NCBI GenBank assembly: GCA_965287045.1
Contig: OZ336876.1
Span: 5,146,001 to 5,210,000 of the forward strand
Source of the DNA: Carcharhinus amblyrhynchos
Taxonomy: Eukaryota
Direction: 5' to 3'
DNA length: 64,000 nt
Shown: positions 1,465 through 61,580 of the stretch, one piece after another
Numbering within the stretch: the first letter of the stretch is position 1
Layout of the letters: each line of letters starts with the position of its first letter
Notes under the pieces: model-generated
Told to the model about the DNA's origin: nothing
The model's database searches: none
What the model saw: the letters and a program-made list of their open reading frames with translations, nothing else
Translations under genes and position numbers: made by a program

Positions 1465-2369
1465 TTATTTAATAAAACCAGGGATGAGAGCCAGGGGGCG
1501 CATCATTATATTTTTCAATTCGGCCCTAAACTTTCTTTGGGAAACTGCATAAATGAAAGTGTTTGTGCAAGAACTCAAACACCTAAGCATATACCCTGAT
1601 AGTTCCGCAATGGTGAAAGAATCATTGTAATCTGTGTTTAAAAATTGTTCATCTGTGAAATTAACACTTATGAAACAGATAAAAATAACCATCCATAACA
1701 ATAGAAAGGTGCCCGATATGACAAGCAGCAAAACGATGGATTTCCTTCTGTTGTCCAGCTCGGGATCTGTGTGATTGTCAGATCTCTTTTGTCCTATGAT
1801 GTCCTTCCGTATTCTATTGGCCAATATAATGTGCCGGATTGTTAGTGCATTCAGCAACATTATCAATACAAACGGTGTGAAAGGTGTCAAAATAGTGTCC
1901 ATCCAGAAAAATGCTATCCATATGGGCAAGGTGTAGAAGTTTGTTTTTGTATTACACGACCATGGTACGTTGTCAATTACTTCCCGAGGTTCATAAATGA
2001 AGTAGACTGGAAGATTTTCTAAAAAGCTTAAACAGCACACCACTGCAATTACCACATAAGCTGTTTTCTCAGTGCAATATTTAGTCCTTACGTTTTGGAA
2101 ACAAATCGAAACAAATCGATCAAAAGTGAAAGCTACAGTTAGCCAGACAGACCAATCAATCGAAAGGAAGAGCAAGGCTAGATTCAGACGACAAATAGAA
2201 GTTACATTCAAGAATGTATTTGAGAAATATGCATCTTGAATCTCATACAATATTACGTCGAAGATCATGACCATTAGATCAGCCACTGCCATGGCCACCA
2301 GGTAATGTGTGATGCATTTGGAGAGACCACACTTTCCACGGGAGAGTATCACGATTGTCACCAAATTTG
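1465..2369 (-). CDS. GPR139-like class A GPCR, gene G1, exon 2 (spliced CDS 975 nt, 324 aa)
   Basis: Uninterrupted 7TM ORF with LxxMAxADL (TM2), SVWLTVAFTFDRF (TM3), NLPVYF (TM4), PF..LN (TM5), DPELDNRRKS..FLLLW (TM6) and SCTNTFIY..KFR (TM7/H8). Acceptor tttttctgcag| precedes CA-AAT-TTG (phase 1, A-N-L). Confidence 0.9.
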
Positions 2370-3525
2370 CTGCAGAAAAACGTACAAACATATCTCAAAT
2401 TTTCTGGTATCAAAGATATGTACAATTAATATCTAACCGCTAAAACATAATGGATATTATTTTATTCATTCAGTAGTCTCTTTCAAAATCAGACAATTGT
2501 ATAGAAATCCTAAGGAATTCCTTAAAAAAAGTCTCATTTCATTCTGAATGATTCGTTAGAATTGTGTATTGTCGGATTGGTATTAAGGGTTATACCGTAT
2601 TGCAAACACACGGAACATCGGCTAAGAAATAAACGGTTTACCATTTGGGGAGCCCGTCAAAAATTGGATGCTCCATGGATCAAAAAAGGCAATTTGTAAA
2701 AATATATTTCTCTGGCATAGATGAATGGACAGAAATAAATATGGTATGCGTGCGGTTTGGGAGCGATGGAGGTGGGGATGGCCCCTGTGGGCGGGGAACC
2801 GCGAGGTCACCTAACCTCATTGAAACAGTGAATTTCTTAATGGCTATTGATAATCCCGATGTGTCAGTTCCATTCTTTGTCAGTTTAACATGCTGAATGC
2901 AAATGTGAAGGAATTTTTTTTCCCCATATGAAGTACCACTTTAAGTTGTATTCTTTGGTCAGCAAAAAACAAAAAACAGTTTTTTTGCCAATGATTGAGT
3001 TCAGTTTGCCGTTGTCCAAGGAACACGGACAAAGATCATTGCAAAAACAATTGCATTTAGCAATAAAATGACTATGTACCATCAGGGATCGAGATTCGGA
3101 ACGTAACAACAGCAACTGTAATTCTGCATTCATTTGTTAATCACTTCGATATGCCTAACTCATGAAAATAGTAACAAACAATGTGATATAATCCCGGCAC
3201 TGAACCGTATGATTTTAATGAAACCATTGTTTAAATTTGAAGCACATGGAAACATAGTTTGTAGAAACAAAGCTGTCTGACTTTTGGAGATTAAATATAA
3301 TTGGAGTTTTAGAATTTATTGATTCCTTTTTCTGTGGTGACCTCTTTCCTTTAGCTAATTGCAAACATGCAACGAACGAAATTGGACAGATGAGTTTAAA
3401 TGTATCGCAAAAACGAAGTGTTAATTCATTTTTGTTTTCATCTGCCCATGTCAAATAGAATAATACAAAAATGTCTGCAAAAACACAGCAGGACTGCCAG
3501 ATGAATGGACAGAAATAAATATATT

Positions 3526-3757
3526 AACATAACATAAGAAATAGGAGCAGGAGTAGGCCATCTGGCCCTTCGAGCCTGCCCCGCCATTCAATAAGATCAT
3601 GGCTGATCTGTCGTGGCTCAGTTCCACATTCCCGCCCTCTCCCCATAATCCATAATCCCCTCTCTTATCAAAAACCCATCAACCCGCGTCTTAAAAATAT
3701 TTAGCGAGGTAGCCTCCACCACTTCAACGGGCAGAGAATTCCAGAGATTCACCACCC
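3526..3757 (-). mobile_element. 5'-truncated CR1-type LINE 3' end
   Basis: Near-identical to 56889-57131, including the cataagaa tail. Confidence 0.85.
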
Positions 3758-3804
3758 TTATGCGTTTTTGTTTGGGAGCGACGAGGAGAAGAGTTAATAT
3801 TTCA

Positions 3805-3975
3805 TAGAATAATACAATCCCGACCGTTTAGTCCATCGCGCCTGCACGAAAGCATCGAAACACAATCCCACGCCAGCCATCCCCTCCATTCCATCCCTGA
3901 CTCACGCGTTTACCAGGTCAAATCCATCCACACACATTTAGGCACTGAGGGGCAGTTTAGCATGGCCAACTCATC
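3805..3975 (-). mobile_element. HE1-like SINE, 3' fragment
   Basis: ggggcagtttagcatggccaa and the catagaat tail match the other SINE copies. Confidence 0.55.
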
Positions 3976-5771
3976 ATTTCGGGTCTAAATGACGGCCCCG
4001 CCTATTTGAACGCCTTTCAAAGTTACATTCCATTCTTGAAAGAATAAAGGAGCATCATGACTCTGACGTGCAATCCATCACAACACCGTGAGAACAAGTG
4101 CTGAGTACGCGTGGCCAATTCTCTCTGTAACCGTGCGTCCCAGATTCAGATTTTCTTTCTCAGTAAGATGTGGGAAGACAACGGAAAATATAGACTAGAT
4201 TTCTACTCAAGTTGCTCTATTGCAATTGGTGAATTTAATCCCTTGAATAGATTGCAATTGTTATCACCGGAGAATTCAACTTGACAGACGGGATGAGATT
4301 GACTTTCCTTTTTCTGGCCAGGAATCCTCAATAGAATATGATCGCATGTTATCTCTTTCAGGTCTTTTTGAGATTCAGTTCTTTTTCATTCGGAAGAAGC
4401 TGAACAACAGACAAGAAGTGGCAGGGTGCATTTGGCTGTAAAGGCATCCCTTTCTCCCTCGTATGTCGGGACAAATTAAAGTATAGCTGCTTTATTGACA
4501 CTTGCAAACAGAAGTTATTGCATACTTCCTGCATTGAATTTTACAGCAGGAATCTGCTAGTTTTCGGATATACTCCATGTGAAATTTTACTGTGCCTTCT
4601 CAGTCCAAGAAACACAAAACACCTAAGATATAAAGACTGAGATTTGCCCAATGCTTGCCAGATATGCCATGACTTGGATTTAGACTTGCAGCTGGCTAAT
4701 AGTAGCTGAATTAATTTTCATGTTAATGTGAATATATTATTCATGTATCTCACAGGCTCCACTGGGAAGAGGCTTATGACAGAAATGGACAATCACACAT
4801 TTGATGTTGCACAACTCATCGAGAAGTGCTAAGCAATAAAATATGTCCAATTACATCGCCTGCCAGCTGGCACATACTGGCAAGTGCGCCTCAAGATTTC
4901 CGATGGCAACAATGACAAAATAAAAGTAACTATTACCCAAATCAAAACATAAGCGGCCGTTGTCGTGTAGTTACTTAAGGCGGCATCGGAAAATAGATGG
5001 CTCTAAATGGTCGGGTAGCCGGAAACACGATATATACATATCATGAAATAACTTCAAATTGTTCTGGAAATGCGAAACTCAGCAACTGCTACATGATAAT
5101 GCGATTGGTCAGGGTAAAAAGCATTCAATCACTTTCTATTCAAATAAATGACAACTCGCCTGTACTCTAAAATAAGCTGCCCATTAGCTCTACCCTTTAC
5201 TGTACTGCCGTTAAAGAGTGATTACAGTTGCGGAGTTCCAGCAACTGTAAGTCTTGTTTAGTTGCTGTTTGTCGGCTGGAAGCGCCAGCAAGACTTTTGG
5301 TAGGAATGAGGAAATATTTGACTCGAATGCTCATCTGGCTTCCAATTGCAGCTTCATTCAGGATGTTATTTCAGGGTGGCTGCATTGAACCAAGTGTGCA
5401 TATTTGTTCGAATTTCACTTCTCAATCATTGGCTTACAATGAAAAAGACGACTACTTTAAAATGTAAGTTCCGATTTTAATGCTTGCTACAGAGGGAGAA
5501 AAACAATACGAATGCTCATAAAGGCTGACCGGTGTAACTTTGTCGCCAAAGATCAATAGTCAGAACAAATTGCAATTAATCTCAGTTAATTAATGTAACC
5601 ACATAAGACTAACATGCTGCCATTTACTCAGTGGTACTTCAACGCCTCATGCCCTAGCTGCGAATAGAATACATCGAAATAAGGAGATATTACATTTCCT
5701 TCTATATCAGGAAGAGGGAAAGAAAAAAAATCTACGATGTATTTTGATTTCCACAGATTAATGCATCTTAC

Positions 5772-5841
5772 CAGGCACTCCAACTATTGCAAGAATTGGG
5801 TAATAGATGTTTTCTATCTGTATGATTATTGGTAGCCCCAT
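5772..5841 (-). CDS. Gene G1 exon 1 (MGLPIIIQIENIYYPILAIVGVP+G)
   Basis: ATG at 5841, then 23 codons plus 1 nt, then donor G|gtaag. Encodes the first half of TM1 and splices in frame to 2369. Near-identical to the exon at 46778-46847. Confidence 0.85.
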
Positions 5842-5906
5842 ATTCAGATTGACGTGACGCTGTTCCTCAGAAAAATACAAATACTCTGCTTTCAAAATAA
5901 GTGTCG

Positions 5907-5995
5907 TATTTATACCAGAGCAAATCTTTAGCGGCATTTTAATATGGTCCCATGGCTGGCATTAGTGTCAAATCGTTGAACAAACAGATGAAGCC
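5907..5995 (-). promoter_or_regulatory. Putative G1 promoter: TATAAATA (5907-5914), O/E-like TCCCATGG, TAAT and forkhead/E-box element (5976-5995)
   Basis: TATA box ~66 nt upstream of the ATG. The 20-mer ttgaacaaacagatgaagcc is 18/20 identical to 24467-24486 upstream of G2. Confidence 0.6.
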
Positions 5996-7789: not shown

Positions 7790-8580
7790 TCCCCACGATT
7801 AAGAGCAAAAGGGATAAAATTGGTCCTCTTGAAGATCAGACTGGTCAGCTATGTATGGAAGCAAAAGAAATGGGGGAGATATTAAATGTGTTTTTTTTGC
7901 ATCCGTATTTACTAAGGAAGCTGGCATAAAGTCTATGGAAATAAGGCAAACAAGTAGGGAGATCATGGAACATTTTCAGTTTAAAGGAGGGGAGCTGCTT
8001 GCTGCCTTGAGGCAAATCACAGTAGATAAATCCCCAGGACCGGACAGGGTATTCCCTCGGACCTTGAAGGAGACTAGTGTTGAAATTGCAGAAGCCCTGG
8101 CAGATATATTTAAAATGCCAGTATCCAGGGTGAGGTGCCGGATGATTGGAGGATAGCTCACGTTGTTCTATTGTTTAAAAAAGGCCTAAAAAATAATCTG
8201 GAGAACTATAGGCCCGTAAATTTGACGTCAGTAGTAGGTAAATTATTGGAAGGAGTATAAGGGATAGGAGCTATAAATAATTGGATAGATAGGGACTTAT
8301 TAGGGAGAGTCAACATGGCTTCGTGCGTGGTAGATCATGTTTAACCAATCTATTAGAATTTTTCAAGGAGGTTACCAGGAAAGTGGATGAAGGGAAGGCA
8401 ATGGATGTTGTCTAATGGACTTCAGTAAGGCCTTTGACGAGGAGATAAACATACTTCCAATTAAAAAGGGATGAAGGCATATGGGGAACAGGGGTGAAGG
8501 TGGATTTGAAACCAATGGAATATCAGCCACGATCTTATTGAATGGCGGAGCTGCCTCAAAAGCCTGAATTTTCCTACTTG
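7790..8580 (+). mobile_element. CR1/HER1-type LINE fragment (ORF2 part joined to a 3' end)
   Basis: IGPLEDQ, KSPGPD, NYRPV, GRSCLTNLLEFF and DFSKAFD motifs, then an abrupt jump to a 3'UTR-like sequence at ~8441. Confidence 0.85.
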
Positions 8581-9050: not shown

Positions 9051-10020
9051 ATTAAAAAGAACATAGTACAAAGGAATGAGTGCAACAGGCTAGCATTGGC
9101 AATAGACAAAAAGGGGTGAAGCAGAGTGAGCAAGAAAAATGCAATGAGAAAATAAGAGTGAAGATGGAATAGATATGATATAACTTGATCCAATTTAGAA
9201 AGAGGGAGACTTCAAATAAGATGTCAAGAGGCCAACATTTGTAAACACAGCTCGCCTTGTTTATTCTTATGACCTTTTAACCGAAATCAGATGTCATCAG
9301 ATGGAGGGATTTATTATGGGAATAATAAAGAATTCTATCCTATGAAGCTGAAGGTGCTGTTGCTAATGGTGTAGTGTGAGAAATACAGGAATGCTGAATA
9401 GCTGAATTGTAGTAACTTAGAAATCGGTGGACGTTATGCTTTCTTTGGAATATTTTGTCACTATTTAGGGAGTTATATGTAACAGACTTAAAGAGGTACG
9501 GCGATCTGTCGTTGATGCAGGAGTTCTAGGTCTAGGGAACGTTGTTTCAGACGCAGGGGTTACAGTTGAGTAGGATTGTGAGAAGTAGTGTAATTTTTAA
9601 GGCTGCAAGAGCTAACAGTACAATCAGCAGTGATGGACGAGTTCAGCAGCATACAGAAAGGGGGAGGCACATGACAGACAGTTAACTAGGTTACACGAAA
9701 CAGATAACCGCAGTGATGAGATTAAGCGCAAAATGGGAGTTGAGAGAGTGTTAATTGAAGGAATGACACAATACAAGCCATTTACAGTGTTTAAAGTTAA
9801 CAAGGTTAACAGCCAAATAAGGGGGAATAACACAATACAAGCCATCACAATGTTTGAAAAACAGTATAAAATGTGCTGCAAATCTATGTAAGGTGTGCCT
9901 ATTTTGACTAGACACCCGGTCTTGCAAGAACGACAAATAAAATCTTGCTCCTTCAGAACTTGACTTGACTAAATTGTTTAACTGTGAGCTGTGTTTCTCA
10001 CAGGATATAGTATATAAAGA

Positions 10021-10861
10021 AGGCAGATGGAGTATAATGTTAGCAAATGTGATGTTATCCACTTTGGTAGAAATAATAGTAGGAGGGATTATTATTTAAA
10101 GGGCGAAAAGCTGCAGCATGCTACGGTGCAGAGGGACCTGGGTTTCCTTGTGCATGAGTCACAAAAACCCAGCCTGCAGGTGCAGCAGATGATCAAGAAG
10201 GCAAATGGAATGTTGGCCTTTATAGCGAGGGGAATAGAATATAAAAGCAGGGAGGTCTTGCTGCAACTGTACAGGGTACTGGTGAGTCCGCAGCTGGAGT
10301 ACTGTGTGCAGTTTTGGTCACCGCATTTGCGAAAGGATATATTGGCCTTGGAGGGAGTGCAGAGGAGGTTCACTAGGCTGATACTAGAGATGAGGGGGTT
10401 AGCCTATGAGGAGCGATTGAATAGACTGGGTCTGTACTTCTTGGAGTTTAGAAGGCTGAGGGGGGATCTTATAGAGACATATAAGATAATGAGAGGGATA
10501 GATAGGGTCGAGGTAGAGAGATTCTTCCCGCTTAGAAAGGATAGCAGAACTAGAGGGCACAGCCTCAAAATAAGGAGGAGGGCAGTTTAGATCGGAGTTG
10601 AGGAGGAACTTCTTCACTCAAAGGGTGGTGAGTCTCTGGAATTCTCTGCCCATTGAAGTGGTGGAAGCTACCTCACTGAATATATTTAAGTCACGGGTAG
10701 ATAGGTTTCTGATAGACAAGGGAATTAAAGGTTATGGGGAGAAAGCGGGAAAGTGGAACTGACCCACTTCAGATCAGCCATGATCTTATTGAATGGCGGG
10801 GCAGACTCGAAGGGCTAGATGGCCTACTCCTGCTCCTATTTCTTATGTTCTTATGTTCTTA
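10021..10861 (+). mobile_element. Young 5'-truncated CR1 LINE (RT C-terminus plus 3'UTR)
   Basis: Open 187-aa ORF (QRDLG, KANGML, LEYCVQFWSP, RRLRGDLIE) and a (ttcttatg)n tail. Confidence 0.92.
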
Positions 10862-12878: not shown

Positions 12879-13765
12879 TTAATCAATGTACTGAGCAATC
12901 CATACAAATGGATATTTTAACATCCTCATTATCTCAGCTCTGAAATTGGGCTGTGTCACCACATAAATAAAGGTGTTTGTGCAGCAGCTAAAATTCCGCA
13001 TCATAATGGTGACTGACACAAATATTTCATAACCATTAAGATCTAAAAATGAATTTAGCGCTCCAGGCATGTATAACACATACAGAAACCACAGAAGTAT
13101 GAAGTTGATGGATATGGCAAAGAGTAAAATAATAGACTTCTTTCTACTCTCAATCTCTGGATCACTGTTTTTTTCTGCCTTGTTCTGATCCTTCAATGAT
13201 TTGCGAGCTCGGCTGACCATTAAAATGCGTCTGAAAATCAGCCCGTTAAGGGAAAGAATTACAGCAAATGGGATCAATGGTGTTAACACCATTGAAAACA
13301 TTGTGAATACATCCCATCTCGGATCAGTATAGAAGGTTTCCTTATTATGACAGTACCACGATACATTGTTGATTACTTTCCAAGGTTCAAATCTGAAGTA
13401 ATGAGGCACATTTTTCAGACAGAACAGAATGGTTATTGTTGCAAGAACTACACCCGCAGTTTTATTGGTACAATATTTAGCTTTCAGCTTCTGGGACCCA
13501 ATGGCGACAAATCGATCAAAGGTAAACATGACAGTGAACCAGACAGAGCAGTCTACGGCTATTTGGAGAAGGACATTGACAACACTGCACACAGGGGTCA
13601 AGTCCAGGAAACCAACTGGGTAATAATAGAACCGGAACCGTTTCAGCATGATATCAGTGATAATAACCATCAGGTCTCCGGCTGCCATGGCCACCAGGTA
13701 ACGAATGGTGCAGCTGGAGAGGTCACACTTTCCCCGGAGTAGGATCAGAATCGCCATTAAATTAA
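12879..13765 (-). CDS. GPR139-like GPCR, gene G2, exon 2 (spliced CDS 954 nt, 317 aa)
   Basis: Intact 7TM ORF (DCSVWFTVMFTFDRF, DPEIESRKKS, SCCTNTFIY). Acceptor ctctctacag|TT-AAT-TTA (phase 1, V-N-L). Confidence 0.9.
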
Positions 13766-14179: not shown

Positions 14180-17100
14180 GTAGCACAAGGATAGACAAAA
14201 TGACGACGTTGCTGGAGAGATCGTGTAGCCGGGAGGGATTCAGATTCTTGAGGCACAAGGAGCAGTTTTGGCAAGGTGGGACGAGTAACAAGCACATAGA
14301 CCGCCCCGGGTTGGAACCAATGTCCTTGGGATCTTTTCGCTAGTTTGCTTGGGTCTATTTAGAGGCTAGTGGGGTTTTGGAATTCAATGCCCGGAGTAGG
14401 ATCAGATTGTTCTGATTCAGGTCAGTTAAATGAAGGTAAATCATTGGCTAGTAATATTGATGATGTCGTGATAATAGACCTGGGAATGCAGGAGAAGGAA
14501 AGTTTTAAAAGTGCCTAGCAAGCAAAATTGATGGGGTTAAACTGTTTATATTTCAATGCAAGTAGTATTACAAGCAACTTCGATGTGGTAAGGGCAGGTA
14601 GATATATGCTATTTTAATGTCACTGCTGTACTAAAAACATGACTAAAAGAGGTGGAAACCAGGCAGCTCAATATCTGTGGGTATAGAATGGGAGATAAAA
14701 AGGAGAGGGAGCAGTATTTAGTGATTAGAAATTAAATTCCAGTTCGAAGACGGGATGACATATTGTTTGGATGAACGAACGAAGCTTCGTAGGTTGAAAT
14801 AAAAAGGGGCAGTCACACGACACAAGGTATAATATTGACCCCCAATGATGAAAGAGCAATAAAAGAACAATTATTTAGAAAGCTTCCTGCTTGTCAGAAA
14901 AGGAGGGTTAATAATGATAGATGACTTAACTATCCCAAGATCAACTGGTATTCAAAACTATTTAAAGGGCACTGAGTGAGAAAAATTCATGGAGCGTGCC
15001 CAGGAATTTATTTTTCAACTACTTATTGACAAATCTAAAAAGAGGAGGGACAATTCTAGACCTTATCTTGGGAAACGAAGAAGGGGAAATCGATGAGTTG
15101 ATTGCTGTGTGAGTGACAATATCTGGGATGCTGATCACAATTCCATTAGATTTAGCATTGCCATGGAAGAGGGCAGAGATAAAACTGGAATGACAGTTTT
15201 GAACTGAGGGTAGGCAATCTGAATGAGGATGCACTTGTTTGAGGTGAACTGGACAACGCTTCTTGGGAATGCATCAGTGGAAAACCAATGGGAAGCACTA
15301 AAAAGCAAGATCATAGTGGTCATGAAAGTGAGCAGTGACCACGATATGATAGAATGTGCCCGGCAGTTTGAGAAGGAGAAGCTGGAATCAGATGTAACTG
15401 TATTACATTTAAACAAAGGTAACTACAAAGGGAGAAGCTGGCTTTGTAGGCTCCTGTTTGGAATGGGAGCCTAACAAGGGGTACAGTAGAACAGCAATGG
15501 CTGTATTTCTTTTTGGGAGGGGGACGTCAATCGGGGGGCACAACCGGAGTTCATCTCAAGGAGGCGGAAAAATGCAAGGGACGGCTGAGGCATCCATTTC
15601 TGGCGAGGGAAGTCAAGGACAACTTAAAAGCAAAATAAAAAGCCTACAAAGTGGCGAGGATTAGTGGGAAACCAGCGGATTAGGATGATCTTTAAAGAGC
15701 AGAGAACAACTAAAAAGAGCAAGAAGCAGGAAGAAGTTGAAACATGGGTGTAAGCTAGCTAGTAATATAAAAGAAAATAGGAACAGTTTTTTTTGATATA
15801 CAAAAGGTAGGATAGGCAAAATTAGATAATGGACCCCTGGAAAATGACGCTGGAGAAGTACTAATAGGAAACAAAGAAATGACAGAGGATCTGGACAGTT
15901 ATTTTGTGTCAGTCTTCACGGTGGATGACACCAGAGGGTTGCAGGCTCCAGGAGACTTGGGGACACAGATGAGTGCAGTGGCCATCGCCAGGGTGAAGAT
16001 CCTGGGGAAACTGAAAAGTCTGAAGGTTTCAAATCTTCAGACTGGTGAAGGATGCACCACATCCTGTGGTTCTATAAAAGATATTGTGGATGTCATGGAG
16101 GCATTGGTGGTGATCTTCGGGAATTACTCGAGGCAGGAAGGGTCCAGACGACTGGAAAATATTTAATGTAACACTGCTAGTTAAGAAGGGAGGAAAGCCG
16201 CAGACGGGCAATTATAGGTTGGTTTGCCTGAATTCGTTCATTGGCAAGATTTTAGAGTCCATTATTAAAGATTGGATGGCAAGTACATCGAAATGCATGA
16301 TAAAATAGGACTGATTCAGCACGGCTTCGTGAAGGGGAAGTCATGTCTGACAAATCTGTTAGAGGTTTTTGAGGAAGTAAGAAGGAAGTTAGCTAAAGGA
16401 GAACCAGCGGATGTGATTTATTTATATCTTCAGAAGGCATTTGACAAAGTGCAAAATAGAAGACCATTAAATAAGTTAAGCGCTCATGGTGTTAACTTTA
16501 AGATCCTGTCATGATTAGAGAATTAGCTGACTGCCAGAAGGCAGAGAGTAGGGATGAAAGGCTTCTGTCACGATGGCAGTGGTTGATTAGTGATGTGCCT
16601 CAGGGGTCGGTGCTGGGAACACAACTTTTCACAATATACTTCACCACTTTGGAAGAGGGAAGTTGCTAAGTTTTCAGATGGTACAAAGACATGTAGAGGG
16701 GCAGGTATCATTGAGGAAGAGAAAGAGGCGGTAGGGGGCTGCAGAAGGGTTTGGACAGGCTAGGAGAGCAAACAAGTGCCACATGGAAGAGTGTGCACTT
16801 TAGATGGAGGAATGGAGATATAGGTTATTTTCTGAATGGGGACATACTTAGGAATCAGAAGCACAAAGGGACTTCGGAGTCCTTGTATAAGATTCTCTTA
16901 AAGTCAATGTATAGGTTCAGTTGGAATTTAGGGAGGCAAATGCCTTCATGTCGAGAGAGCTAGAGCACAACAGAAGGGATGTACTTCTGAGATTGTATAA
17001 GGTTCTAATCAGGCTTCATTTGGAGTATTGTGATCAGTTTTGGGCCCCGTATCTCAGGAAGGATGTGTCTGCCTTGGAGTGGGTTCTGAGGATGTTCATA

Positions 17101-17572
17101 AGAATGATCCCTAGAACGAAGAGCTTGTCATATGAGGAACGGTTGAGGACTCTGAGTCTGTACTCGTTGGAGTTTAGAAGAATGAAGGGAGTTCTTATTA
17201 AAACTTACAGGATATTGCGAGGTCTGGGTAGAATGGACGGGGAGAGGATGATTCCTCTAGTAGGAAAAACCAGAACCAGAGGACCCCAGGTCAAAAGGAT
17301 GATCCTTTAAAATAGAGATAAGGAGGAATTTCTTCAACCAGAGAATGGTCAATCCGGGGACCCCTTCACCGCAGAAGGCCATGGAAACCAGGTCATTGAG
17401 TATCTTTAAGACAGAGATAGTTATGTTATTGATTAATATAGGGATCCGCTGTTATGGGGAAAAAGCAGGAAAATGGGGATGAAAAAAACAAGAGATATGA
17501 TTGAATGACGGAGCAGACTCGATGGGCTGAGTGGCCTAATTGTGCTCCTTTGTCTTATGGTCTTGTGCTCTT
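14180..17572 (+). mobile_element. Long degenerate CR1 LINE (ORF1 end, endonuclease, RT, 3'UTR) in the G2 intron
   Basis: GFRFLRH (ORF1), DLILGNE, SDHDMIE, QHGFVKGKSCLTNLLE, PQGSVLG and LEYCDQFWAP motifs. Many stops; ends in a tcttatgg tail. Confidence 0.88.
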
Positions 17573-24254: not shown

Positions 24255-24321
24255 CAGGAACCCCAATGGTGGTAAGGGCCGTATAGAATATTTTCCTGAC
24301 CATTTCTATTGGCGTATGCAT
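24255..24321 (-). CDS. Gene G2 exon 1 (MHTPIEMVRKIFYTALTTIGVP+G)
   Basis: ATG at 24321, 22 codons plus 1 nt, donor G|gtaagt. The nearest downstream exon 2 is at 13765 (intron ~10.5 kb). Homologous to G6 exon 1. Confidence 0.8.
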
Positions 24322-24405: not shown

Positions 24406-24486
24406 AATTTATACTCTGTAGAATGTCCCCTGGGTATTGAAGTTACAACATTTAATGTCGTAGGTTTTGAATAAACAGATGACGCC
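24406..24486 (-). promoter_or_regulatory. Putative G2 promoter: TATAAAT, O/E-like TCCCCTGGG (24426-24434), forkhead/E-box ATAAACAGATG
   Basis: Same motifs at similar spacing as in the G1 upstream region. Confidence 0.6.
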
Positions 24487-27835: not shown

Positions 27836-28761
27836 TCAGGTTGATAGGCTGTTGCCATATCTCATCATCAAATGCCAATTCCAACAAAATGCCTTCCAGC
27901 TTACCATCCAATTTGATAATGCGGACAGTAAAAGCGACAGCCACGCTCGAATACATCTTTATGGTAGGCCACAAAGCCATGTGGTTGTACACGATCTGAG
28001 AAGTTTTAACATATTCCCTGCGCTATAAGCCATATTCAGAGGGTGTGCCCAATTCGGGACATTATCGGACTTGGAAATATTTGCGTAGAAAACCATGATC
28101 ACTTCTGTCAACCACAATAAAATAAAACAGAGAAGTAAAATCATAGATTTCCTCCGACTCTCCATTCCTGGATCTTCACGTTTCTCAGCAATGCCCTGAC
28201 GGCAGAGCTTCCTCCGGGCTTTACTCGACGCTAAAACATATCTGACGGTCAGAAAATTAAACAAGATCAGAAAGAAAGGCAGCAGTGGGATTGAGACATT
28301 GTGGAACCAGGAGAATGCCAGCCATCCAGGAAGAATATGAGCATCTACCTTTTTCATACAACCAATGGGCCCACCTATTTCCTAAGATTCATATGTGAAG
28401 TAGTAGGGGATATTAGTTAATAAACTCAACATATACACGCTTCCTATCACCATCCTTGCAGTTTTCAATGTGGAGTATTTGATTTTAAACGTTTGCCAAC
28501 AAATGGAAACGAAACGAACATGAATGAAAACAACTGTTAGCCACACCGAACAATCAAGGCTTATAAATATCATCACTTCCTGAAGTATACAGGGGACAGT
28601 GTGAGTCATGTGGCTGTAAATTGTACTAAAGATGAAGCTTATCACTACACTGAAGAAGATGACCAGTAGATCTGCTGCTGCCATCGCTATTAGATAGCTG
28701 GTGATGCATTTAGTGAGTCGACATCTTGCTCGGCAAAGAATGATAATCATCAATAATTTAC
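27836..28761 (-). pseudogene. GPR139-like pseudogene G3, exon 2
   Basis: Acceptor cccaaaag|GT-AAA (TM1 N->K), DRF->VRF, in-frame TAG at 28382-28384, a short deletion in TM6 and an in-frame TAA at 27959-27961 before helix 8. Confidence 0.88.
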
Positions 28762-37100: not shown

Positions 37101-37460
37101 GCCACCAAACAGAACTCTCTTCTCATACAGTATAAATTGGCGTCCCCTTTGTAGATTGTTTATCTTCTATAAATGCCTTGATGCAGGAAATCGCAAAAAA
37201 AACTTCGGAAGTGTTTCGCAATTTGCAGCAAAGTCTGGCCTTCTGAATCAATGGAGCGACTTCAGAAGCAGTAGCTTTATGAAAAAACTTTGTCACTGCT
37301 AAGTCCTCCACTGAGGTATAACGTCAAATTCCGAAAATTGCCTATCTGACAACGATGTGCGGGCCATGGATGTCGCGCAGAGGGATTATATGGCAATAGC
37401 GTCCACGATTAATGATTTCACCGACATGGGAAGGTGGAATTATTCTTTTCAGATCTTAAC

Positions 37461-38540
37461 AGAAGCCAGAGGGTGGTTGTAGAAGTTGTTATTCAGACTG
37501 GAGGCCTGTGACCAGCGGTGTGCCTCAGGGATCAGTGCTGGTTCCACTGTTATTTGTCATTTATATTAATGATTTGGATGAGAATATAGGAGGCATGGTT
37601 AATACATTTACAGGTGACACTAAGATTGGCGATATAGTGGACAGTGAAGAAAGTTATCTCCAATTGCAACGGGATCTTGATCAATTGGGCCAGCGGGCTG
37701 ACGAATGGCAAATGGAGATTAATGTACACAAATGCGAGATGATACATTTTGGTAGATTGAGCCAGGGCAGGACTTACTCAGCTAATGGTAGGGCGTTGGG
37801 CAGAGTTACAGAACAAAGAGATCTAGGGGTACATGTTCATAACACCTTCAAAGCGGAGTCACAGGTAGACAGATTGCTGAAGAAGGTATTTGGCGTGCGT
37901 GGTTTCATCAGTCAGAACATTGAATACAGGAGTTTGAATGTCTTGTTGAAGTTATACAAGACAATAGTAAGGCTACACTTGGAATACTGTGTGCAGATCT
38001 GGTCACCCTGTTATAGAAAGGATAGTATTAAACTAGAAAGAGTGCCCAAAATATTTACTAGGGTGCTACTGGGACCTGATGGACTGAGTTAAAAGGAGAG
38101 GCTGGATAGACTGGGACTTTTTTTGTCTGGAGCTTAGGAGGCTGAATGGTGATCTTATGGAGGTCTATAAAATAATGAGGGGCACAGGTAAGCTAGATAG
38201 TCAATATATCTCCCAAAGGTAAGGGCGTCTAAAATTAGGAGGCATAGGTTTAAGGTGAGAGAGGAGATATAAAAGTGTCCAGAGGGACAATTGTTTCACA
38301 CAGAGGGTGGTGAGTGTATGGAACAAGCTGCCAGAGGTAGTAATAGAGGCGGGTACAATTTTGTCTTTTAAAAAGAATTTAGGTAGTCACATAGGTACGA
38401 TGGGTATAGAGGGATATGGGCCAAATGCGGCAACTGGGATTAGCTTTGGGGTTTTACAAAAAAGAAGGGTGGCATGGACAAGTTGGGCCGAAGGCCCTGT
38501 TTCCATGCAGTAAACCTCTATGACACTATGACTCTATAAG
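37461..38540 (+). mobile_element. CR1/HER1-type LINE 3' portion
   Basis: SGVPQGSVL..LF.IYINDLD, DTKIG, QRDLG and LEYCVQIWSP motifs; ctctatga tail. Confidence 0.9.
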
Positions 38541-41672: not shown

Positions 41673-42586
41673 CTACCCTTGATTATACCTTTTTAGCCAT
41701 TTTCCTAATTTAATTATAAGAACGAACGGATATTTGAACAGATGTTTTAACTCCTCCCTGAATTGTGTCTGGGAAACTGCATACATAACTGGATTGGAGC
41801 AGGAACTTAAATCCTGCAGCATATACCCAATTCGCTGCAGAACGGTGAATGCATCACTGAGGTCGGTCTGCAAATACCGAACTTCTCCAATCAGAACACA
41901 TACGTAATGAATAAATGTTAGCATCCATAAAAGTATAAAGCTGCCAGATATGACCAAAAGTAAAATGATGGACTTTCTTCGGTTTCCCATTTCTGGATCA
42001 CTGTTGTGGGTGTGCAAAGCCCTCCTAATCTTGCTTCTGAGCAGAATGTATCTGATGGTCAGGCTATTCAATAGAACAATAAAAAGAAATGGAATAAAAG
42101 GCATCAAAACCGTGTCAAACCATGAGAATACAACCCAAGTAAGGGAACTGTAAATGCTTGATTTCAAAACACAGTACCATGACATCTTTTTAATTATTTC
42201 TCCAGGCTCAATGGTGAAGTAAATCGGTAGATTTTGAAGCAAGCTAAGCCCCCATATTATTGCTACAATTTGAGCTGCAGTTTTCTCTGTGCAGTATTGT
42301 GTTCTTATTTTCTGACAACAAATTGCAACAAAGCGATCAAGTGTCAATGCGACAGTTAACCAGACAGAACAGTCAATGGAAGCAGAAAGCAGGAAAACAT
42401 TCAGACTGCAGGCGACAGTGTGGTCCAGAAATGAAACTGGGAAGTAGAATTCTTTGATCTGATATAGGATGACTTCCACGATCATGACCAGAATATCGGC
42501 GGCTGCCATGGAGATCAAGTAAATAGTGATGCATTTAGAAAGGCCACACTTGCCGTTGTATAGAATAATGATGGTTAACAAGTTGG
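41673..42586 (-). CDS. GPR139-like GPCR, gene G4, exon 2 (spliced CDS 984 nt, 327 aa)
   Basis: Intact 7TM ORF (DCSVWLTVALTLDRF, DPEMGNRRKS, SCSNPVMY). Acceptor tcatttacag|CC-AAC-TTG (phase 1, A-N-L). Confidence 0.9.
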
Positions 42587-45860: not shown

Positions 45861-46777
45861 CAATATTTGAATATTCACAGGTGCAGTGAATTTTCCACAT
45901 CGCTGGTCAGCTTCATCCGTCCCAACACTCCATCCAAATTTTGAAAATAAACTCTGGCTAATGGTAATTAACTTATGATGGGAAGGATAAGGGTTCTGTA
46001 TCTATCTACTGCGCATCAAAATACAGACGGAATATTAATTGATTCCCATTCATGATTATTGGGAGGCAAAGGAATAAACACATATTTCTTCCACATCCAA
46101 AAATAATAATAAAACTCTTGAAGTAACGCAAAGAATATCCAAAAAAAAGTCTGCAATCAACAATCCACAATGTGACATTCAATTTCTGCTATTGTAAATG
46201 AGGATAAGTGACCTAGTCGCACCTTTCACATTAGCACATAGCCAGCAGTAGCTAAATTAGATCTATCCAAAAATCGTGTCATATAGCCATCCGTGAGCAG
46301 CTGCCTCAAGTATACTGTTGCCTTTCTGGACACAATCCATTCTTTATGCAGAAAGGACCTCCTTCACAGAATATCGTTTCTTATGCAGCGAACGTAGATA
46401 TGTCCCCTCACACTGAGCTTCCATGTTTTCACGTCCACATTTTTAACCCAATAATGAGCGTTAATGTCGTCTACAAGTATTGCATCAATAATATCAATCC
46501 TGGAGAGAACTTAGACTGCTTCCTGCTCGGTGTATCATGCCAAATACACCAATGTTACAGGAAAAATGCCAATCTTGCTTATTTTCCCAAAGTTGAGAGA
46601 AGACTGCCATCAATGATACCATTCACTTAACATTACATGTTGAATCTTTGAGTTATTTTCATCAACTGACAGGTCAAATGCATTATAATGGTAAAATATA
46701 ATTATTACATACTAAGAAGGTTAACTGCGAAATTCAAATATTGAAATAAGTAAATAAAACGAATAGAATGCACTTAC

Positions 46778-46847
46778 CAGGAACACCAACTATTGCAAGA
46801 ATTGGGTAGTAGATTGACTCTATCTGTGTAAGTAGTGGACGTGCCAT
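46778..46847 (-). CDS. Gene G4 exon 1 (MARPLLTQIESIYYPILAIVGVP+G)
   Basis: ATG at 46847, 23 codons plus 1 nt, donor G|gtaagt. Splices in frame to 42586 (intron ~4.2 kb). Confidence 0.85.
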
Positions 46848-46912
46848 TTTCTTGGAAGAACTTTGCAAGTGGTGGGTGAAGATCGCAGCCAGAGTTGTCT
46901 ACAGAACACGTC

Positions 46913-47020
46913 TTCTTATACACTGGAGGGAAATCTCGAGAGATCTATTTCACAATTGATGTGAGTTTCAGTAATCAGCTTGAGAATATTAGTCATGCCT
47001 TATGATTGAGTAACACATCC
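46913..47020 (-). promoter_or_regulatory. Putative G4 promoter: TATAAGAA, ATCTC-NN-GAGAT palindrome (46933-46944), ATTAGT..TTGAGTAAC
   Basis: TATA box ~66 nt from the ATG, as in G1. Only a partial match to the shared module. Confidence 0.45.
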
Positions 47021-49793: not shown

Positions 49794-49803
49794 TTACACA
49801 CAA
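49598..49803. repeat. (CA)n/(CT)n microsatellite, low complexity
   Basis: Directly visible. Confidence 0.9.
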
Positions 49804-49824
49804 GCAGATGCTGAAATGTCTTGT

Positions 49825-51523: not shown

Positions 51524-52422
51524 TCATTGAACAATATTTAGTATTTTGGCGAAGGGACATTTCAACAGAATCTTCAACTGTTCTCTGAACTTAGTTTGTG
51601 TCACAACATAAATGCCAGTGTTTGTGCAGCAACTCACCAGTTCCAGCATGAAGCTCACATCCATCACAAAATTATCTAGATATATAGATTTATACCCCAT
51701 ATAATAATGTGATTCCAACTAGAACAAATCATTAACGTTGACCGTAACAGCATAAAATTGGCCAAGATTAAAAAAACAGTAAAATGATGGATTTCTGCTA
51801 ACTCTCCATCTCTGTGTCTCTGCGGCTCTCACCACTGTTCTGATTCCAGAGTCTCCTGCAGAATTTGCTGCTCACTAAAAGATAGTTGAAGTGAAAACAT
51901 TGAGCAGCAAAATCAGGACAAATGGAACACAGGGTGTTTAAATATGATGGAGGAACTCAATTGTTGTCAAAGCCAGAGACTCTTGAACATCCTGTGTGTA
52001 ACAACAAAACCAGGGGTCATTCATCAATACATGCCGCTCTGTTAACATAAAATACCAGAAAATATTCTTTAAACAGCTCAACACAGTGACTGTCCCTAGA
52101 ACTGCAGCTGCTGTTTTCTCTCTGAAATATTTACTTTTCAGCTTCTGGCAGGATATGGCCACAAATCAATCGAAGGTGAAAGTGACGGTGAACCAGACAG
52201 AGCAGTCAGTGACAGTAAATAGCAGGACAGCGTGTATAGAGTGCACAGGATGGACTTCAGAAAAAGGAACACTTCTGAATAAACAATTGGAATTTGCCTA
52301 AATATCAAGTCAAGGGATAATAACCATTAGATCTGCCATTGCCACCACCACCAGAAAATGAGTGACACCTTCAGAAAGGCGATGTTTGTTCCGAAACAGG
52401 ATTAAAATACTGAGGAGATTAA
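51524..52422 (-). pseudogene. GPR139-like pseudogene G5, exon 2 (no exon 1 identified)
   Basis: Acceptor ccctcacag|TT-AAT-CTC. Frameshifts in TM2/ECL1, DRF->D*F (TGA 52166-52168) and further stops. Ends SCCTNTGIYVVTQTKFR. Confidence 0.9.
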
Positions 52423-53050: not shown

Positions 53051-54254
53051 TAGTGCATTATTTTCTAATCTTGTACAGTCTGGGGCCATTCGGCCAATCG
53101 AATCTGCAGTCTCTGAAATAACCTTCCACCCAGTGCCAATCCGTGCCTGATCCCCATGATTTTTCATGTCATGCACTATTAAAGGAGATTGGAGATGGTG
53201 CCTGGCACCTTTGTCAGATTGGTAATCTGCTGGGAGTCTTTCTGTTGTCTGTTAAATTAGAAAGTCTGGAATGTGGCTTGTAAAAGAAGCAAATGTGAAG
53301 TGAGGAGAAAAAAGTATTTTCACTTAAAGGGAGTTCGTCTTTGGGATGCACTGCCTGCAAGTCTGGTGGAGGCAGGTTCAATAGAATCATTGACGAAGGC
53401 ATTAGATAGTTATTTGAATATATAAAATGTGCGGGTGTGCGGACAACAGACATGGGAATGGCACTAAACCCTGAATGCTCAATAGTAGAGCTGGTGCAGG
53501 GCGATAGGCCACATTTCCTCCTACTGCAATATATCAATTATATGATTGATTCTACGACTTACACACCGAAAGCAGTCGCCACTCAAACCGGATTGCAACA
53601 GAACAGCCCTTAAAAATTAAGTGAACTTCTGTAGAACTTTTTCAGCAATGATTACGTTGATACTGTTGGTCGTGATCTGCAGTACGAGATGTATTGGGTG
53701 CTACAGTAATAAACCTATGGACGATATGGTCGCTTCTGGTCAACCAAGTATTTTTAGTAGACTGAAACAAGTCAGAATCCTAATTTTCTTCTCCTGTCTC
53801 TACAAATTTAGCTGAATATCCACTTCTGCATTTACATTAACATGTTTCAGACAGCTGCTGCCATCTTCCCACTCTGACATTAACCAATGTCAAACATTGT
53901 TCCCGGAGCTGCAAATCGTGTCTGCCCATTCCACATCCTCCTGCTGTGAAAGCTGGGCTGCGTTCCCGCTGCGATAAACCAACAAAACAAAAAGTGGTTA
54001 AAGATGGAGGAGAAAGTTCAGAGTCTGAATTTGTTGGGCTCAGTCAGTGTTGCGTTTTCAAGGCTGTGAAGTGCCAAATCGGAAGATGTGATGGTGTTCC
54101 TCCCGTTTTCGTTAAGCTTCACTAGGGCACAGGAGCAGGCCAATGGCAGACATGTGGAGTTGAGAGTGAGATGCAAATTTGAAATGACAAACAACTGGAC
54201 GGTGGTGAAGACTAAGCAGTCGCAAACCTGGTAACTTTATATTGGCCCTCGAAC

Positions 54255-56888: not shown

Positions 56889-58570
56889 CATAAGAACATA
56901 AGAACATAAGAAATAGGAGCAGGAGTAGGCCATTTAGCCCCTCGAGCCTGCCCCACCATTCAATAAGATCATGGCTGATCTGTCGTGGCTCAGTTCCACC
57001 TTCCCGCCCTCTCCCCATAACCCTTAATCCCCTTGCCTATTAAAAACCTATCAACTCGTGTCTTAAATATATTTAGCGAGGCAGCCTCCACTACTTCAAC
57101 GGGCAGAGAATTCCAGAGATTCACCACCCTTTGAGTGAAGAAGTTCCTCCTCAACTCCGTTCTAAACCACCCCCACCCCCCTTTATCTTGAGGCTGTGCC
57201 CTCTAGTCCTTTCTGAGCGGGAAGAGCCTCTCCACCACTATCCTATCCATCCCATTCATCATCTTATACGTCTCAATGAGATCTCCCCTCATTCTTCTAA
57301 ACTCTAACGAGTACAAGCCTAGTTTATTCAGCCTCTCCTCATAGTTCAACCCCCTCAACTCTGGTATCAGCCTAGTAAACCTCCCCTGCACTCCCTCCAA
57401 GACCAAAATATCCTTGCGTAAGTGTGGCGACCAAAACTGCACACAGTACTCCAGCTGCGGCCTCACCAGTGCCCTGTACAGTTGCAGCAAGACCTCCCTA
57501 CTTTTATATTCAATCCCCCTCGCTATGAAGGCCAGCACCCCCTTTGCCTTCCTGACCACCTGCTGCACCTGCAGGCTGGGTTTTTGTGACTCATGCACAA
57601 GGACCCCGAGGTCCCTCTGCACCGTTGCATGCTGCAGTTTTTCGCCATGTAAGTAATAATCCTTCCTACCATTATTCCTACCAAAGTGGACAACTTCACA
57701 CTTGCCAACATTAAATTCCATTTGCCAGTTCCTGGCCCATTCACCCAGCCTATCTAGATCCTTCTGCAGACTTTCCACACACTCCGCAGAATTTGCCATT
57801 CCACCAATCTTGGTGTCATCAGCAAATTTCGACACCATACACTTGGTTCCCTCCTCCAGATCATCTATATAAATGGTAAATAGCTGAGGCCCCAGCACCG
57901 ACCCCTGGGGCACTCCACTAGTCACCAACAGCCAATCTGAATAGCACCCATTGACCCCCACTCTCTGCCTCCTATTTGACAGCCAATCCCTATCCACGCT
58001 AACACCCTACCCCTGACTCCATGCCCCCTGACCTTCTGCAATAACCTCTTGTGCGGCACCTTATCAAACGCCTTCTGAAAATCAAGAAACACCACATCCA
58101 CCGGCTCTCCTCTATCCACCGCCCTAGACACATCCTCATAGAATTCCAATAAATTCGTCAGACATGACTTCCCCTTAACGAAACCGTGCTGCGTCTGCTC
58201 TATCAAACAATTCTCCTCAAGATGCCTCGCTATTTTGTCCTTCATCAGGGATTCTAACACTTTACCTACAACAGACGTTAAACTAACCGGCCTATAATTC
58301 CCTGCCTTTTGCCTGCCACCCTTCTTAAACAACGGCATAACATTAGCCGTTTTCCAATCTTCCGGCACTTCCCTGGAATCCAGCGATGTTTGGAAAATGA
58401 TCATCAAGGCATCCACTATCACCTCCGCCATTTCTTTCAGATCCCTTGGATGCATTCCATCCGGTCCTGGGGACTTGTCCACAATCAGTCCCTCCAGTCT
58501 TTCGAGCACTGCCTCTCTAGTAACAATAATGTTACTCTTGAGCTTTTAGCAGTTTGCACTGAGATGGTGG
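56889..58570 (-). mobile_element. Young 5'-truncated CR1 LINE (RT domain, one frameshift at ~57995)
   Basis: Two long overlapping ORFs (KSPGPDG, NYRPVSLTS, DFQKAFD, PQGSVLGP, FADD) and a (cataagaa)n tail. Confidence 0.95.
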
Positions 58571-58699
58571 CAGATCTGTACCGTAATTAGTTCAAACAGG
58601 CGGAAATCGGCGAGCATTCCTGTCCCAGTATTAATAAAATATACTGTTTTGTTATTGTGATCATTGATGTTCCCAGTGAATGACGATAACCAATCAAAT

Positions 58700-60169: not shown

Positions 60170-60266
60170 GTCGTCACCTTTTTTTTTCAAATTTAAGACA
60201 CAAAAACAATTTGAACACTTTTTTTCACAACATCAGTATCTCAATTGAGATCCTGGAATGTATAAA
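60170..60266 (+). promoter_or_regulatory. Putative decayed G6 promoter: module remnant (60170-60190), 14-bp palindrome ATCTCAATTGAGAT (60238-60251), TATAAA (60261-60266)
   Basis: gtcgtcacctttttttttcaaa aligns to G2 ggcgtcatctgtttattcaaa with the E-box and forkhead cores destroyed. Confidence 0.5.
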
Positions 60267-60353
60267 GATGGTGCACAAGGAATGTATCACCTCAGAATCT
60301 GATCCAGAGACGTTGACTGCAGCAGAAAGGAACTGCTTCACTTCAGACAGCAA

Positions 60354-60420
60354 ATGCATAGACCAATTCAATGAGTCAGGAATATATTCTATATGATCCT
60401 TGCCATCATTGGCGTTCCTG
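60354..60420 (+). pseudogene. G6 exon 1 (MHRPIQ*VRNIFYMILAIIGVP+G)
   Basis: 67 nt, as in G2 exon 1. Donor G|gtgagt. In-frame TGA at 60372-60374. Confidence 0.88.
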
Positions 60421-60826
60421 GTGAGTACATAAGAACAACTGGGTTGAGCAAATTTGTGTGTAAGCTTGTTTTTGATGTTAGTATGTAAATAACAATGTTA
60501 AATTGGATCGACTTGTCATGTTTATATAATCATTATTAGAATACTATAAATGCATTAAATTTATTGGTTTATTTCTCTGGTTATATTATGGTGCATCGTT
60601 TATTTCTAGCTCAGAGGTAATCTTAGTAGCAAAGTTGCTGCAAGCGACTTAAAGTTGTGCCCTATTGAATCAAGTCTCAAACTAGGGAACTCATCAGAAG
60701 AACATTGTTAGTGAAATATCTGCCATGTGGTGACAAATTGGAGCAGAACATCTGACGCCAGTGACCATGTATTGCCATGCCTAAGTTACTGTCAACCATC
60801 CACATTCTCTCCCCTTTGTCTTACAG

Positions 60827-61580
60827 TTAATGTAGCTGCAATCGTGATCCTGTCCCGTGGACGTTGTGGCCTATCCACCTGCACAACTTGCTACCTGCTG
60901 GCAATGGCAATGGCGGATCTACTGTTTATTGTTTTTGAGATCATTCTCAGGCATATCAATGCCTATTATTTTCAGAGGAATTTCCTTTCGATCACCCCTG
61001 TGTGTAGTGTTCAAGCTGTCCTGCTTCGCGCATTGCTGGACTGTTCTGTCTGGTTCACGGTTACTTTCACTTTTGATCGATTTGTCGCCATTTGTTGTCA
61101 GAAGCTGAAAACAAAATATTGCACAAAGAAAACTGCATCTGTGGTCCTAGGAACAATAGGCATTTTGCTCTTTGCAAAGAATATTCCCATCTACTTCAGA
61201 TTTGAACCTGAAAGGATCATCAACAATGTACCATGGAGCTGTGAAAATAAGCGAAGCTACTTCAGTGACCCTAGATGGATTGGGTTTAGAATTTTTGAAA
61301 AGGTCTTGACACCATTGATACCATTTGGCTCAATTATTTTACTTAATGTACTGACAGTCAAACATATTTTAGTGACCAGTTGAGTGCAGGAGGCACTGAA
61401 GGGTCAGAACAGGGTGGAAAAACATAGTGACCCAGAGATGGAGAGTAGAAAGAAGTCTGTAATTTTACTTTTTACCATATCCAGCAGTTTTATACTGCTG
61501 TGGTTGGTGTATGTGTTGTATTTTTTCGACGTTGATGATTATTTTGATGATTACTCTTCTTACATATTTGATAATATTTT
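60827..61580 (+). pseudogene. GPR139-like pseudogene G6, exon 2 (truncated at the start of TM7)
   Basis: Acceptor tgtcttacag|TT-AAT-GTA; DCSVWFTVTFTFDRF; TGA at 61381-61383. Homology stops after YIFDNI, and the CTNTFIY segment is absent. Confidence 0.9.

Follow-up and report, generated by a model that had tools for sequence, protein, structure and literature searches.

Clustered 'probable GPR139' genes of a shark as a sample of an ancient chondrichthyan receptor family with a candidate chemosensory role

Reported activators of the ancestral receptor group of GPR139 and GPR142 are aromatic amino acids and peptides with aromatic ends (PMC8557429, PMC12208981), and the tryptophan/phenylalanine site of human GPR139 comprises F109, H187, W241, R244 and N271 (PMC5430874). 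The srw/FMRFamide-receptor-like GPCRs of gastropods and nematodes have been described as putative chemoreceptor expansions, most of them without experimental confirmation (PMC11682238). Shark noses are large, yet the olfactory receptors known from cartilaginous fishes number only about 10-50 (PMC10116579). Under the misleading label 'probable GPR139', shark genome annotations conceal a receptor family of comparable or greater size, which surveys confined to known receptor families would miss. The initial annotation of the DNA described here had suggested that this family was unrecognised. Literature searches (GPR139 or coupled receptor 139 with shark or cartilaginous, plus broader searches, with subscription papers and bioRxiv supplements outside their scope) returned no description of it, and term searches of the main texts of the catshark, whale shark, Greenland shark and hammerhead/mako papers returned no mention of GPR139. 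The claim is nonetheless doubtful, given that multiple GPR139-annotated copies were reportedly flagged as possibly olfactory in the white shark genome study of Marra et al. in 2019.

The 64-kb window, the whole stretch of Carcharhinus amblyrhynchos DNA that was analysed, contains six paralogous class A GPCR genes (G1 to G6), three intact and three broken. This count, already given in the initial annotation, was confirmed using tblastn and a family HMM, neither of which found a seventh full copy. Pairwise identity among the six is 36-59%. Pfam 7tm_1 matched five of the six GPCR pieces submitted, while for the remaining piece, taken from the latter half of G3, there was just a weak STE3 match; Rfam gave no matches. 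The genes have a two-exon layout with a first exon of 67-70 nt ending in a phase-1 donor. The proposal that this layout is shared holds for G1, G2, G4 and G6, but no exon 1 was found for G3 or G5 by regex, by DNA HMM or by a protein HMM built from 79 database exons.

Five of the genes lie on the minus strand. The main exon of G1 (1465..2369) is intact from the end of TM1 to the stop, as judged by its open frame and Pfam, and its exon 1 (5772..5841, minus strand), which carries the ATG, a short N-terminus and the first half of TM1, lies across an intron of 3402 nt; the nearest relative of G1 is a horn-shark protein, 76-77% identical. G2 likewise has an intact main exon (12879..13765; open frame, Pfam). 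The exon 1 tentatively given to it (24255..24321, minus strand) implies an intron of 10489 nt, such that the intact status of G2 requires a 10.5-kb intron; the assignment is supported by G2 and G6 being nearest neighbours in the tree and having the most similar promoters. G4 combines an intact main exon (41673..42586; open frame, Pfam) with an exon 1 at 46778..46847 (minus strand) and an intron of 4191 nt. With their own first exons, the predicted spliced products are 324 aa (G1), 317 aa (G2) and 327 aa (G4). The pseudogene G3, of a deep-branching subfamily, retains a main exon (about 27935..28761) with stops at 28384 and 27961 and short deletions, and that of G5 (about 51527..52422) has seven internal in-frame stops and a frame-shifted stretch near 51753-51893. 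G6 is inverted relative to the other five; its exon 1 (60354..60420, plus strand) has an in-frame stop at codon 7, and after an intron of 406 nt its main exon (60827..about 61580, plus strand) has a stop at 61381 and loses similarity after TM6, with TM7 not found. LINE reverse-transcriptase fragments occur between the genes. Logan-derived matches were rejected as transcript evidence, given that none of the seven begins with exon 1 and splicing is thus not shown.

A TATA-like box precedes each of the four located first exons, 74 nt before the ATG in G1 (5909..5915, minus strand) and G4 (46915..46921, minus strand), 93 nt in G2 (24408..24414, minus strand) and 94 nt in G6 (60260..60266, plus strand). 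The pattern GTATAAR therefore occurs 74-94 nt upstream of the ATG in 4/4 promoters, although it was picked after the sequences were seen and 20 such motifs lie on both strands of the window. Similarity over 250 nt exceeded background in only three of six promoter pairs, none involving G4; the TATA-type module proposed earlier is thus shared only in part. Strict O/E (EBF) sites of the olfactory-receptor type were found in none of the four promoters, and homeodomain sites and other patterns were at chance level; the O/E and homeodomain patterns were consensus sequences, and receptors of microvillous neurons need not carry such sites.

Database searches place the six genes within a large family. 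The copy count, set beforehand as a test, is not a handful: 1964 of 3441 candidate database clusters match at E<=1e-10, and at the stricter cut-off of E<=1e-30 there are 102 matching clusters at 50% identity. Catshark members of the family include XP_038654761.1, XP_038657043.1 and XP_038636254.1. Among the best 120 matches, 113 are named and all of these are elasmobranchs (sharks or rays) from 16 species, counted by hand, including 26 from horn shark (23 on one 74-Mb contig), 26 from Heptranchias, 18 from Pristiophorus and 14 from Rhinoraja. Shark and ray sequences occur together within subfamilies, and the tree places a chimaera (Callorhinchus) protein within the chondrichthyan family, which indicates that subfamilies have persisted for hundreds of millions of years. 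The window genes are distributed over five old subfamilies; their recent local duplication was rejected (AU p=1e-68, the group having been named before the tree). Of the 15 window-gene pairs, 12 have an estimable dS, and these give pairwise dN/dS values of 0.14-0.39; dS is near saturation. Judged from these comparisons, the window samples an ancient chondrichthyan multigene family of class A GPCRs, which has expanded as tandem clusters over several chromosomes and is still losing genes. Family size, tandem clusters and three broken copies together support the earlier description of a tandemly clustered, lineage-specific, birth-and-death GPCR family.

Class A membership is indicated by the 7tm_1 domain (in 38/38 family members tested, of which seven weakly match Srx), a seven-helix fold and the core microswitch residues. 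By sequence, the closest solved relative is GPR139, which G1 matches at 34.9 bits and which ranks first in PDB searches with the family (65.8 bits, against 54.5 for the next), amphibian (64.7 bits) and fish-paralogue (111.3 bits) profiles; the best solved matches of the family profile after it are a mix of CCR5, PrRPR, TRHR, NMUR2 and CCKAR. The closest proteins outside the family, in vertebrates and amphioxus, are labelled 'GPR139', and the database labels of relatives bear out the suspected auto-annotation as 'probable GPR139'. However, the structure model (pLDDT 76.6) aligns with peptide GPCRs at TM-scores of about 0.7-0.77, and Foldseek drew no distinction between GPR139 and the other peptide GPCRs; in structural alignment GPR139 ranks 45th at only 19% identity. 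The catshark moreover carries a true GPR139 besides these receptors, with 81.3% identity to the mouse protein (PMC13200729, supplement). Orthology to GPR139 was rejected on these grounds and on the residues of its Trp/Phe site (below), and on sequence criteria the family is a lineage separate from GPR139 despite its database label.

The sister of the family is an amphibian/sturgeon 'probable GPR139' gene (e.g., XP_069092602.1), with which it forms a starred clade in the tree (support 100/99). This tree lacks canonical GPR139 and GPR142, none having been returned by three homologue searches or recognised among the listed hits of a further one, and an amphioxus query for them returned nine amphioxus-like proteins, one unnamed protein and no vertebrate protein; invertebrate sequences fall outside as an outgroup of their own. 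The sister gene is apparently single-copy and conserved: used as a query, it returned 20 amphibian proteins, each from a different species, at 66-74% identity to the query, and sturgeon at 46%. Identity between this gene and the shark family is about 32%. The probable origin of the family is a single gene in the GPR139/GPR142/MIP-receptor group, a paralogue that amphibians and sturgeon would still keep. The tiny N-terminus noted earlier was rejected as a chemosensory mark, being common to the single-copy amphibian and coelacanth relatives.

The positions of the GPR139 Trp/Phe site were mapped onto the family through the profile-search alignment. Among 193 family sequences, none keeps all five site residues, one keeps four and six keep three, whereas 18/18 amphibian sister proteins keep four of five. 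A basic residue at 6.51 (R/K) occurs in only 6/193 members, as does Asn7.39; with Pro6.50 and His5.42, these GPR139 residues are mostly lost, while Trp6.48 is kept. An amino-acid ligand had been proposed from GPR139 homology, a proposal that finds no support in a family that is not orthologous and has lost the basic 6.51 residue and Asn7.39. Pro7.50 is also mostly absent. The signalling core (Asp-Arg at 3.49-3.50, Trp6.48, Asn7.49, Tyr7.53 and Cys3.25) is kept in the alignment, with signalling motifs 96-99% conserved across the 193 sequences and Asp2.50, Arg3.50, Trp6.48, Asn7.49 and Tyr7.53 at 98-99%. By the same alignment, the ligand pocket is rebuilt and differs between subfamilies. Site rates in 65 family representatives are 1.43 for the pocket against 0.69 for other TM sites (p=9e-6), as opposed to 0.22 against 0.60 in 18 amphibian orthologues (p=3.5e-4), and the contrast between the two groups is marked (p=2e-8). 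Within species, pocket identity compared with that of other outer-half TM sites is 61% vs 65% in horn shark (25% of random draws as low), 62 vs 68 in Heptranchias (21%) and 35 vs 45 among the window genes (14%). The pocket is thus not more variable than its surroundings within a species, and relaxed constraint on the whole outer half also fits. The 14 chosen pocket residues of G1 are identical in 2/23 horn-shark paralogues, which suggests that subfamily pockets are kept across species. Acidic residues at both 3.37 and 5.42 occur in 132/193 sequences but in only 21/65 divergent representatives. Across divergent members and against the amphibian control, the site rates support a reading of the family as a diversified ligand-sensing repertoire.

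Our preferred reading, held with slightly less than even confidence, is that the family is a repertoire of peripheral chemoreceptors with a ligand pocket rebuilt between subfamilies. The receptors would be used in olfactory microvillous neurons or in chemosensory cells of the mouth or skin. Their ligands would be small, polar and soluble in water (amines, amino acids or short peptides), a different one for each receptor, with acidic residues at 3.37, 5.42 and 7.35 and Arg/Gln7.42 holding them, and signalling would take a Ca2+/PLC-type G-protein route. Asp5.42 binds amines in fish TAARs (PMC4695389). Judging by the residues lost, the ligand is probably not Trp or Phe bound in the GPR139 manner. 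Weakly against this reading, a catshark brain and olfactory library is reported with no GPCR among its 50 top genes, where sparse receptors would not rank (PMC11979771). A further-reaching proposal, which we regard as doubtful, is that cartilaginous fishes have here an additional large chemoreceptor family next to OR/TAAR/V1R/V2R/T1R/T2R, drawn from the GPR139/MIP-receptor group before the chimaera-shark split, with tens or more genes per genome and one or few expressed per microvillous olfactory neuron. If this were true, the family could rival or outnumber the known olfactory repertoire, and shark smell would depend on it in part; the single amphibian sister gene would then be a leftover sensor of aromatic amino acids.

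Clustered birth-and-death and variable pockets are also typical of MRGPRs, FPRs and fish chemokine receptors, and the shark receptors could, though we think it unlikely, be sentinels of the MRGPR/FPR kind, detecting cationic peptides, irritants or microbial products in somatosensory neurons, granulocytes or mast-like cells. An acidic pocket would suit cationic ligands, and the role may be vacant, as the whale shark paper reports MAS1 and its relatives to be lacking in cartilaginous fishes (PMC8455134); however, no MRGPRs or FPRs appear among the best solved matches that follow GPR139. Even in an immune or somatosensory role, the family would be a major unstudied GPCR expansion. The four pocket residues kept by the amphibian gene and the aromatic ligands of the ancestral group would suit sensors of internal nutrients or of a neuro-endocrine kind, as are GPR139 (habenula) and GPR142, responding in gut, pancreas or brain to amino acids, amines, osmolytes or peptides, but this is improbable because endogenous-ligand receptors are normally few and pocket-conserved, like the amphibian gene, and it fits poorly with tens of paralogues, differing pockets and many pseudogenes. 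A mostly neutral drift of copy number in regions rich in repeats, where the majority of copies would be redundant and the outer half relaxed, would accommodate the three broken genes of six, the intervening LINE fragments and the unexceptional within-species pocket variability, but has little probability given the age of the subfamilies, dN/dS below 0.4 and the conserved signalling motifs.

The reading as peripheral chemoreceptors can be set against known systems. GPR139 and GPR142 share Trp6.48 with the shark family, GPR139 being its best solved relative by sequence and the source of its label, but the shark family is multi-copy rather than single-copy. The amphibian/sturgeon gene has the same short N-terminus and TM5-TM6 loop motif; it differs in its single protein per species (20 amphibians) and its nearly invariant, GPR139-like pocket, and offers a tractable handle on the ancestral ligand in Xenopus and axolotl. 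MRGPRs and FPRs are clustered, fast-evolving class A repertoires used in sensory and immune cells, but belong to another branch of class A, and the proposed resemblance would be functional only. The OR, TAAR, V1R/ORA and T2R families resemble the shark family in their tandem clusters, pseudogenes, compact coding regions, variable outer half and conserved inner half; TAARs likewise derive from a brain receptor group. The shark family, a candidate for a sensory role, shows no family-level homology to them (giving Pfam 7tm_1), has one coding intron, in TM1, and lacks an N-terminal glycosylation sequon in 55/55 members with a short N-terminus. The invertebrate srw/FMRFamide-receptor-like GPCRs belong to the same wider group, and the atlas neighbours of the shark family carry Srw/Srx/Srsx domains. 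They too are lineage-specific expansions read as chemosensory, while the shark expansion is independent and took place in a vertebrate.

Six related main exons were recovered in the window by tblastn with long open reading frames as queries. They lie on the minus strand for genes G1 (~1.5-2.4 kb), G2 (~12.9-13.8 kb), G3 (~27.9-28.8 kb), G4 (~41.7-42.6 kb) and G5 (~51.5-52.4 kb), and on the plus strand for G6 (~60.8-61.6 kb); a family HMM run in all six frames found no further full copies in the window. Once spliced, G1, G2 and G4 are open (324, 317 and 327 aa, respectively), while G3 carries two stops and G5 seven internal ones together with a shifted stretch; G6 has two stops and lacks TM7. 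This confirms the six paralogous GPCR genes, three intact and three broken, of the initial annotation, within the limits given below. Its common exon layout was recovered for four of the six genes (G1, G2, G4 and G6), which have a first exon of 67-70 nt with a phase-1 GT donor, followed by introns of 3402, 10489, 4191 and 406 nt (the exon given to G2 is a probable assignment). Pairwise identity among the six is 36-59%, with dN/dS of 0.14-0.39 in 12 of 15 pairs and saturated dS in the remaining three. The exon 1 regions of G1 (5767-5845) and G4 (46773-46851) share 80% DNA identity (whole proteins, 56%), reflecting either strong constraint or conversion. Short pieces resembling the main-exon splice acceptor and first codons at 1266-1331 and 53490-53537 (both minus strand; tblastn E 0.05 and 0.1) had no match by the family HMM and are possibly remnants of further copies.

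The proposed shared TATA-type promoter module held for a GTATAAR box, found 74-94 nt upstream of the ATG in all four promoters, but not for the wider sequence, where similarity was significant for only three of six pairs. No strict O/E site occurs in the four promoters. Of five promoter patterns tried, one, a CGTCA half-site, is present in 4/4 of the 250-nt stretches preceding exon 1, against an expectation of 0.23 per stretch; three of the four have it near -163 to -182.

Between G2 exon 1 and G3 lies an intronless MRPL55-like frame (26470-27120, plus strand; Pfam Mitoc_L55, E 1e-23), with no in-frame ATG found near its start, which is probably a processed pseudogene. LINE reverse-transcriptase fragments, which we take to be CR1-like, occur at 57206-58545 (minus), 37460-38089, 10018-10587, 16915-17307 and 7833-8153 (all plus); Pfam RVT_1 was found in the three tested, and their 3' ends have 86-93% identical copies. 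The window also contains several SINE-like repeats, a tandem array of a 68-nt unit (33124-33672; 4.4 clean copies and more degenerate ones) and a 55-nt inverted repeat (17590-17644/18075-18129; 96% complementary, 430 nt between), which may represent the termini of a small DNA transposon.

The GPCR expansion is real and sizeable. Of 3441 candidates from a G1 search, 1964 proteins reached E<=1e-10; among the best 120 of these, 113 were named, all sharks or rays (16 species), and seven unnamed. Labels of the 113 were mostly 'probable GPR139', with sex peptide, capa, vasopressin V2 and galanin receptor-like also present, and 26 came from horn shark, 23 of them on one contig by hand count. With G4 as query, an exhaustive search brought up 102 clusters (50% identity) that reach E<=1e-30; the 19 family representatives looked up comprised 17 elasmobranch, one chimaera (Callorhinchus) and one unnamed protein. 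The window's best relative is 76% identical. In a 71-row tree (48 chosen family rows plus outgroups, none of them canonical GPR139/GPR142), the family and an unnamed amphibian/sturgeon gene (e.g., XP_069092602.1) form a starred clade (support 100/99), with weaker support for the family by itself (81/59). The window genes are scattered over five places, and their grouping as one was rejected (p-AU 1e-68). Subfamilies mix sharks and rays and the chimaera protein is nested inside the family, which indicates a very old expansion. The earlier evolutionary reading, a lineage-specific, clustered birth-and-death family, is supported.

Among solved proteins, human GPR139 matches best, though weakly (G1, 34.9 bits; family profile, 65.8 bits vs 54.5 for the next solved match), and it ranks 45th in fold comparison at 19% identity. 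A distinct GPR139 exists in catshark and shares 81.3% identity with that of mouse, according to the reciprocal best hits tabulated in the supplement of PMC13200729, so the label is wrong for the family at orthologue level. The closest proteins outside the family are one from a salamander, paralogues of coelacanth/teleost and of reedfish/anchovy, and amphioxus proteins, followed by invertebrate receptors. The salamander protein returned 25 matches: 20 amphibian (20 different species, 66-74% identical, query apart), one sturgeon (46%) and four elasmobranch (32-33%). This amphibian paralogue group has a GPR139-like pocket, and no amniote or teleost match was returned. It is one of at least three unnamed vertebrate paralogue groups outside the shark family that carry the label (P0226 and P0280-P0299, amphibians and sturgeon; P0231/P0243; P0259/P0277). 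Placement in the GPR139/GPR142 group is suggested by profile scores and by the available text of PMC8557429, where the protostome MIP/FMRFamide/proctolin receptors are the sister group of GPR139/142.

Mutagenesis described in the available text of PMC5430874 shows F109, H187, W241 and N271 to be important for GPR139 activation, and R244 lies in the modelled site, although its mutants failed to reach the surface. These residues were mapped via the family-profile alignment to 3.33, 5.42, 6.48, 7.39 and, for R244, 6.51. Among 193 sequences (G1, G2, G4 and 190 full-length proteins drawn from 321 after removal of outgroups and of those below 34% identity or 270 aligned residues), Trp6.48 persists in 98%, Phe3.33 in 46%, His5.42 in 10%, and Arg/Lys6.51 and Asn7.39 in six each; none has all five and one has four, a state found in 18/18 aligned amphibian proteins (20 found). 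Instead, the family carries Asp/Glu3.37 (92%), Asp/Glu5.42 (69%), often an acidic 7.35, and Arg/Gln at 7.42, at lower fractions among 65 divergent representatives. The homology argument for amino-acid ligands is therefore not supported: His5.42, the basic residue at 6.51 and Asn7.39 are mostly gone, and these are not GPR139 orthologues. At 24 pocket positions picked from general class A knowledge, site rates are roughly double those of the remaining TM sites for the family, and around one-third of them for amphibians. However, when horn shark, Heptranchias and the window genes are each taken alone, pocket identity was not significantly lower than at random outer-half sites. It can safely be said that the family has lost pocket conservation and that its pockets vary between subfamilies, with the G1 pocket nevertheless identical to that of two horn-shark paralogues.

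No description of the family was found in the literature searched, which covers few subscription papers, or in term searches of shark genome papers. The white shark genome study of Marra et al. in 2019 reportedly described, for both the white shark and the whale shark, tens of proteins annotated as GPR139 and proposed a connection with smell; if so, the expansion had already been noticed. The available text of a 2025 GPR139 review yielded no mention. What appears new is a separate lineage with an apparently single-copy amphibian sister, older than the chimaera split and without the Trp/Phe pocket.

The intact genes encode class A receptors whose signalling core is conserved; their subfamilies are old and under purifying selection, with continuing loss and a rebuilt pocket. 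External chemosensation is the candidate role we tentatively favour, at somewhat short of even chances; no GPCR occurs among the top-50 genes of the catshark olfactory list. A sentinel role in sensory neurons or immunity is rather unlikely, and internal nutrient or neuro-endocrine sensing is improbable. Drift is equally improbable. The family would probably serve as a detector repertoire for many ligands, presumably with Ca2+-type signalling, the kind assayed for GPR139. Since microvillous neurons are the only type reported for catshark in the available text of PMC10116579, the candidate receptor cells, if nasal, would be microvillous neurons. By analogy with Asp5.42 of fish TAARs, as described in the available text of PMC4695389, the ligands may be polar and probably amine-bearing.
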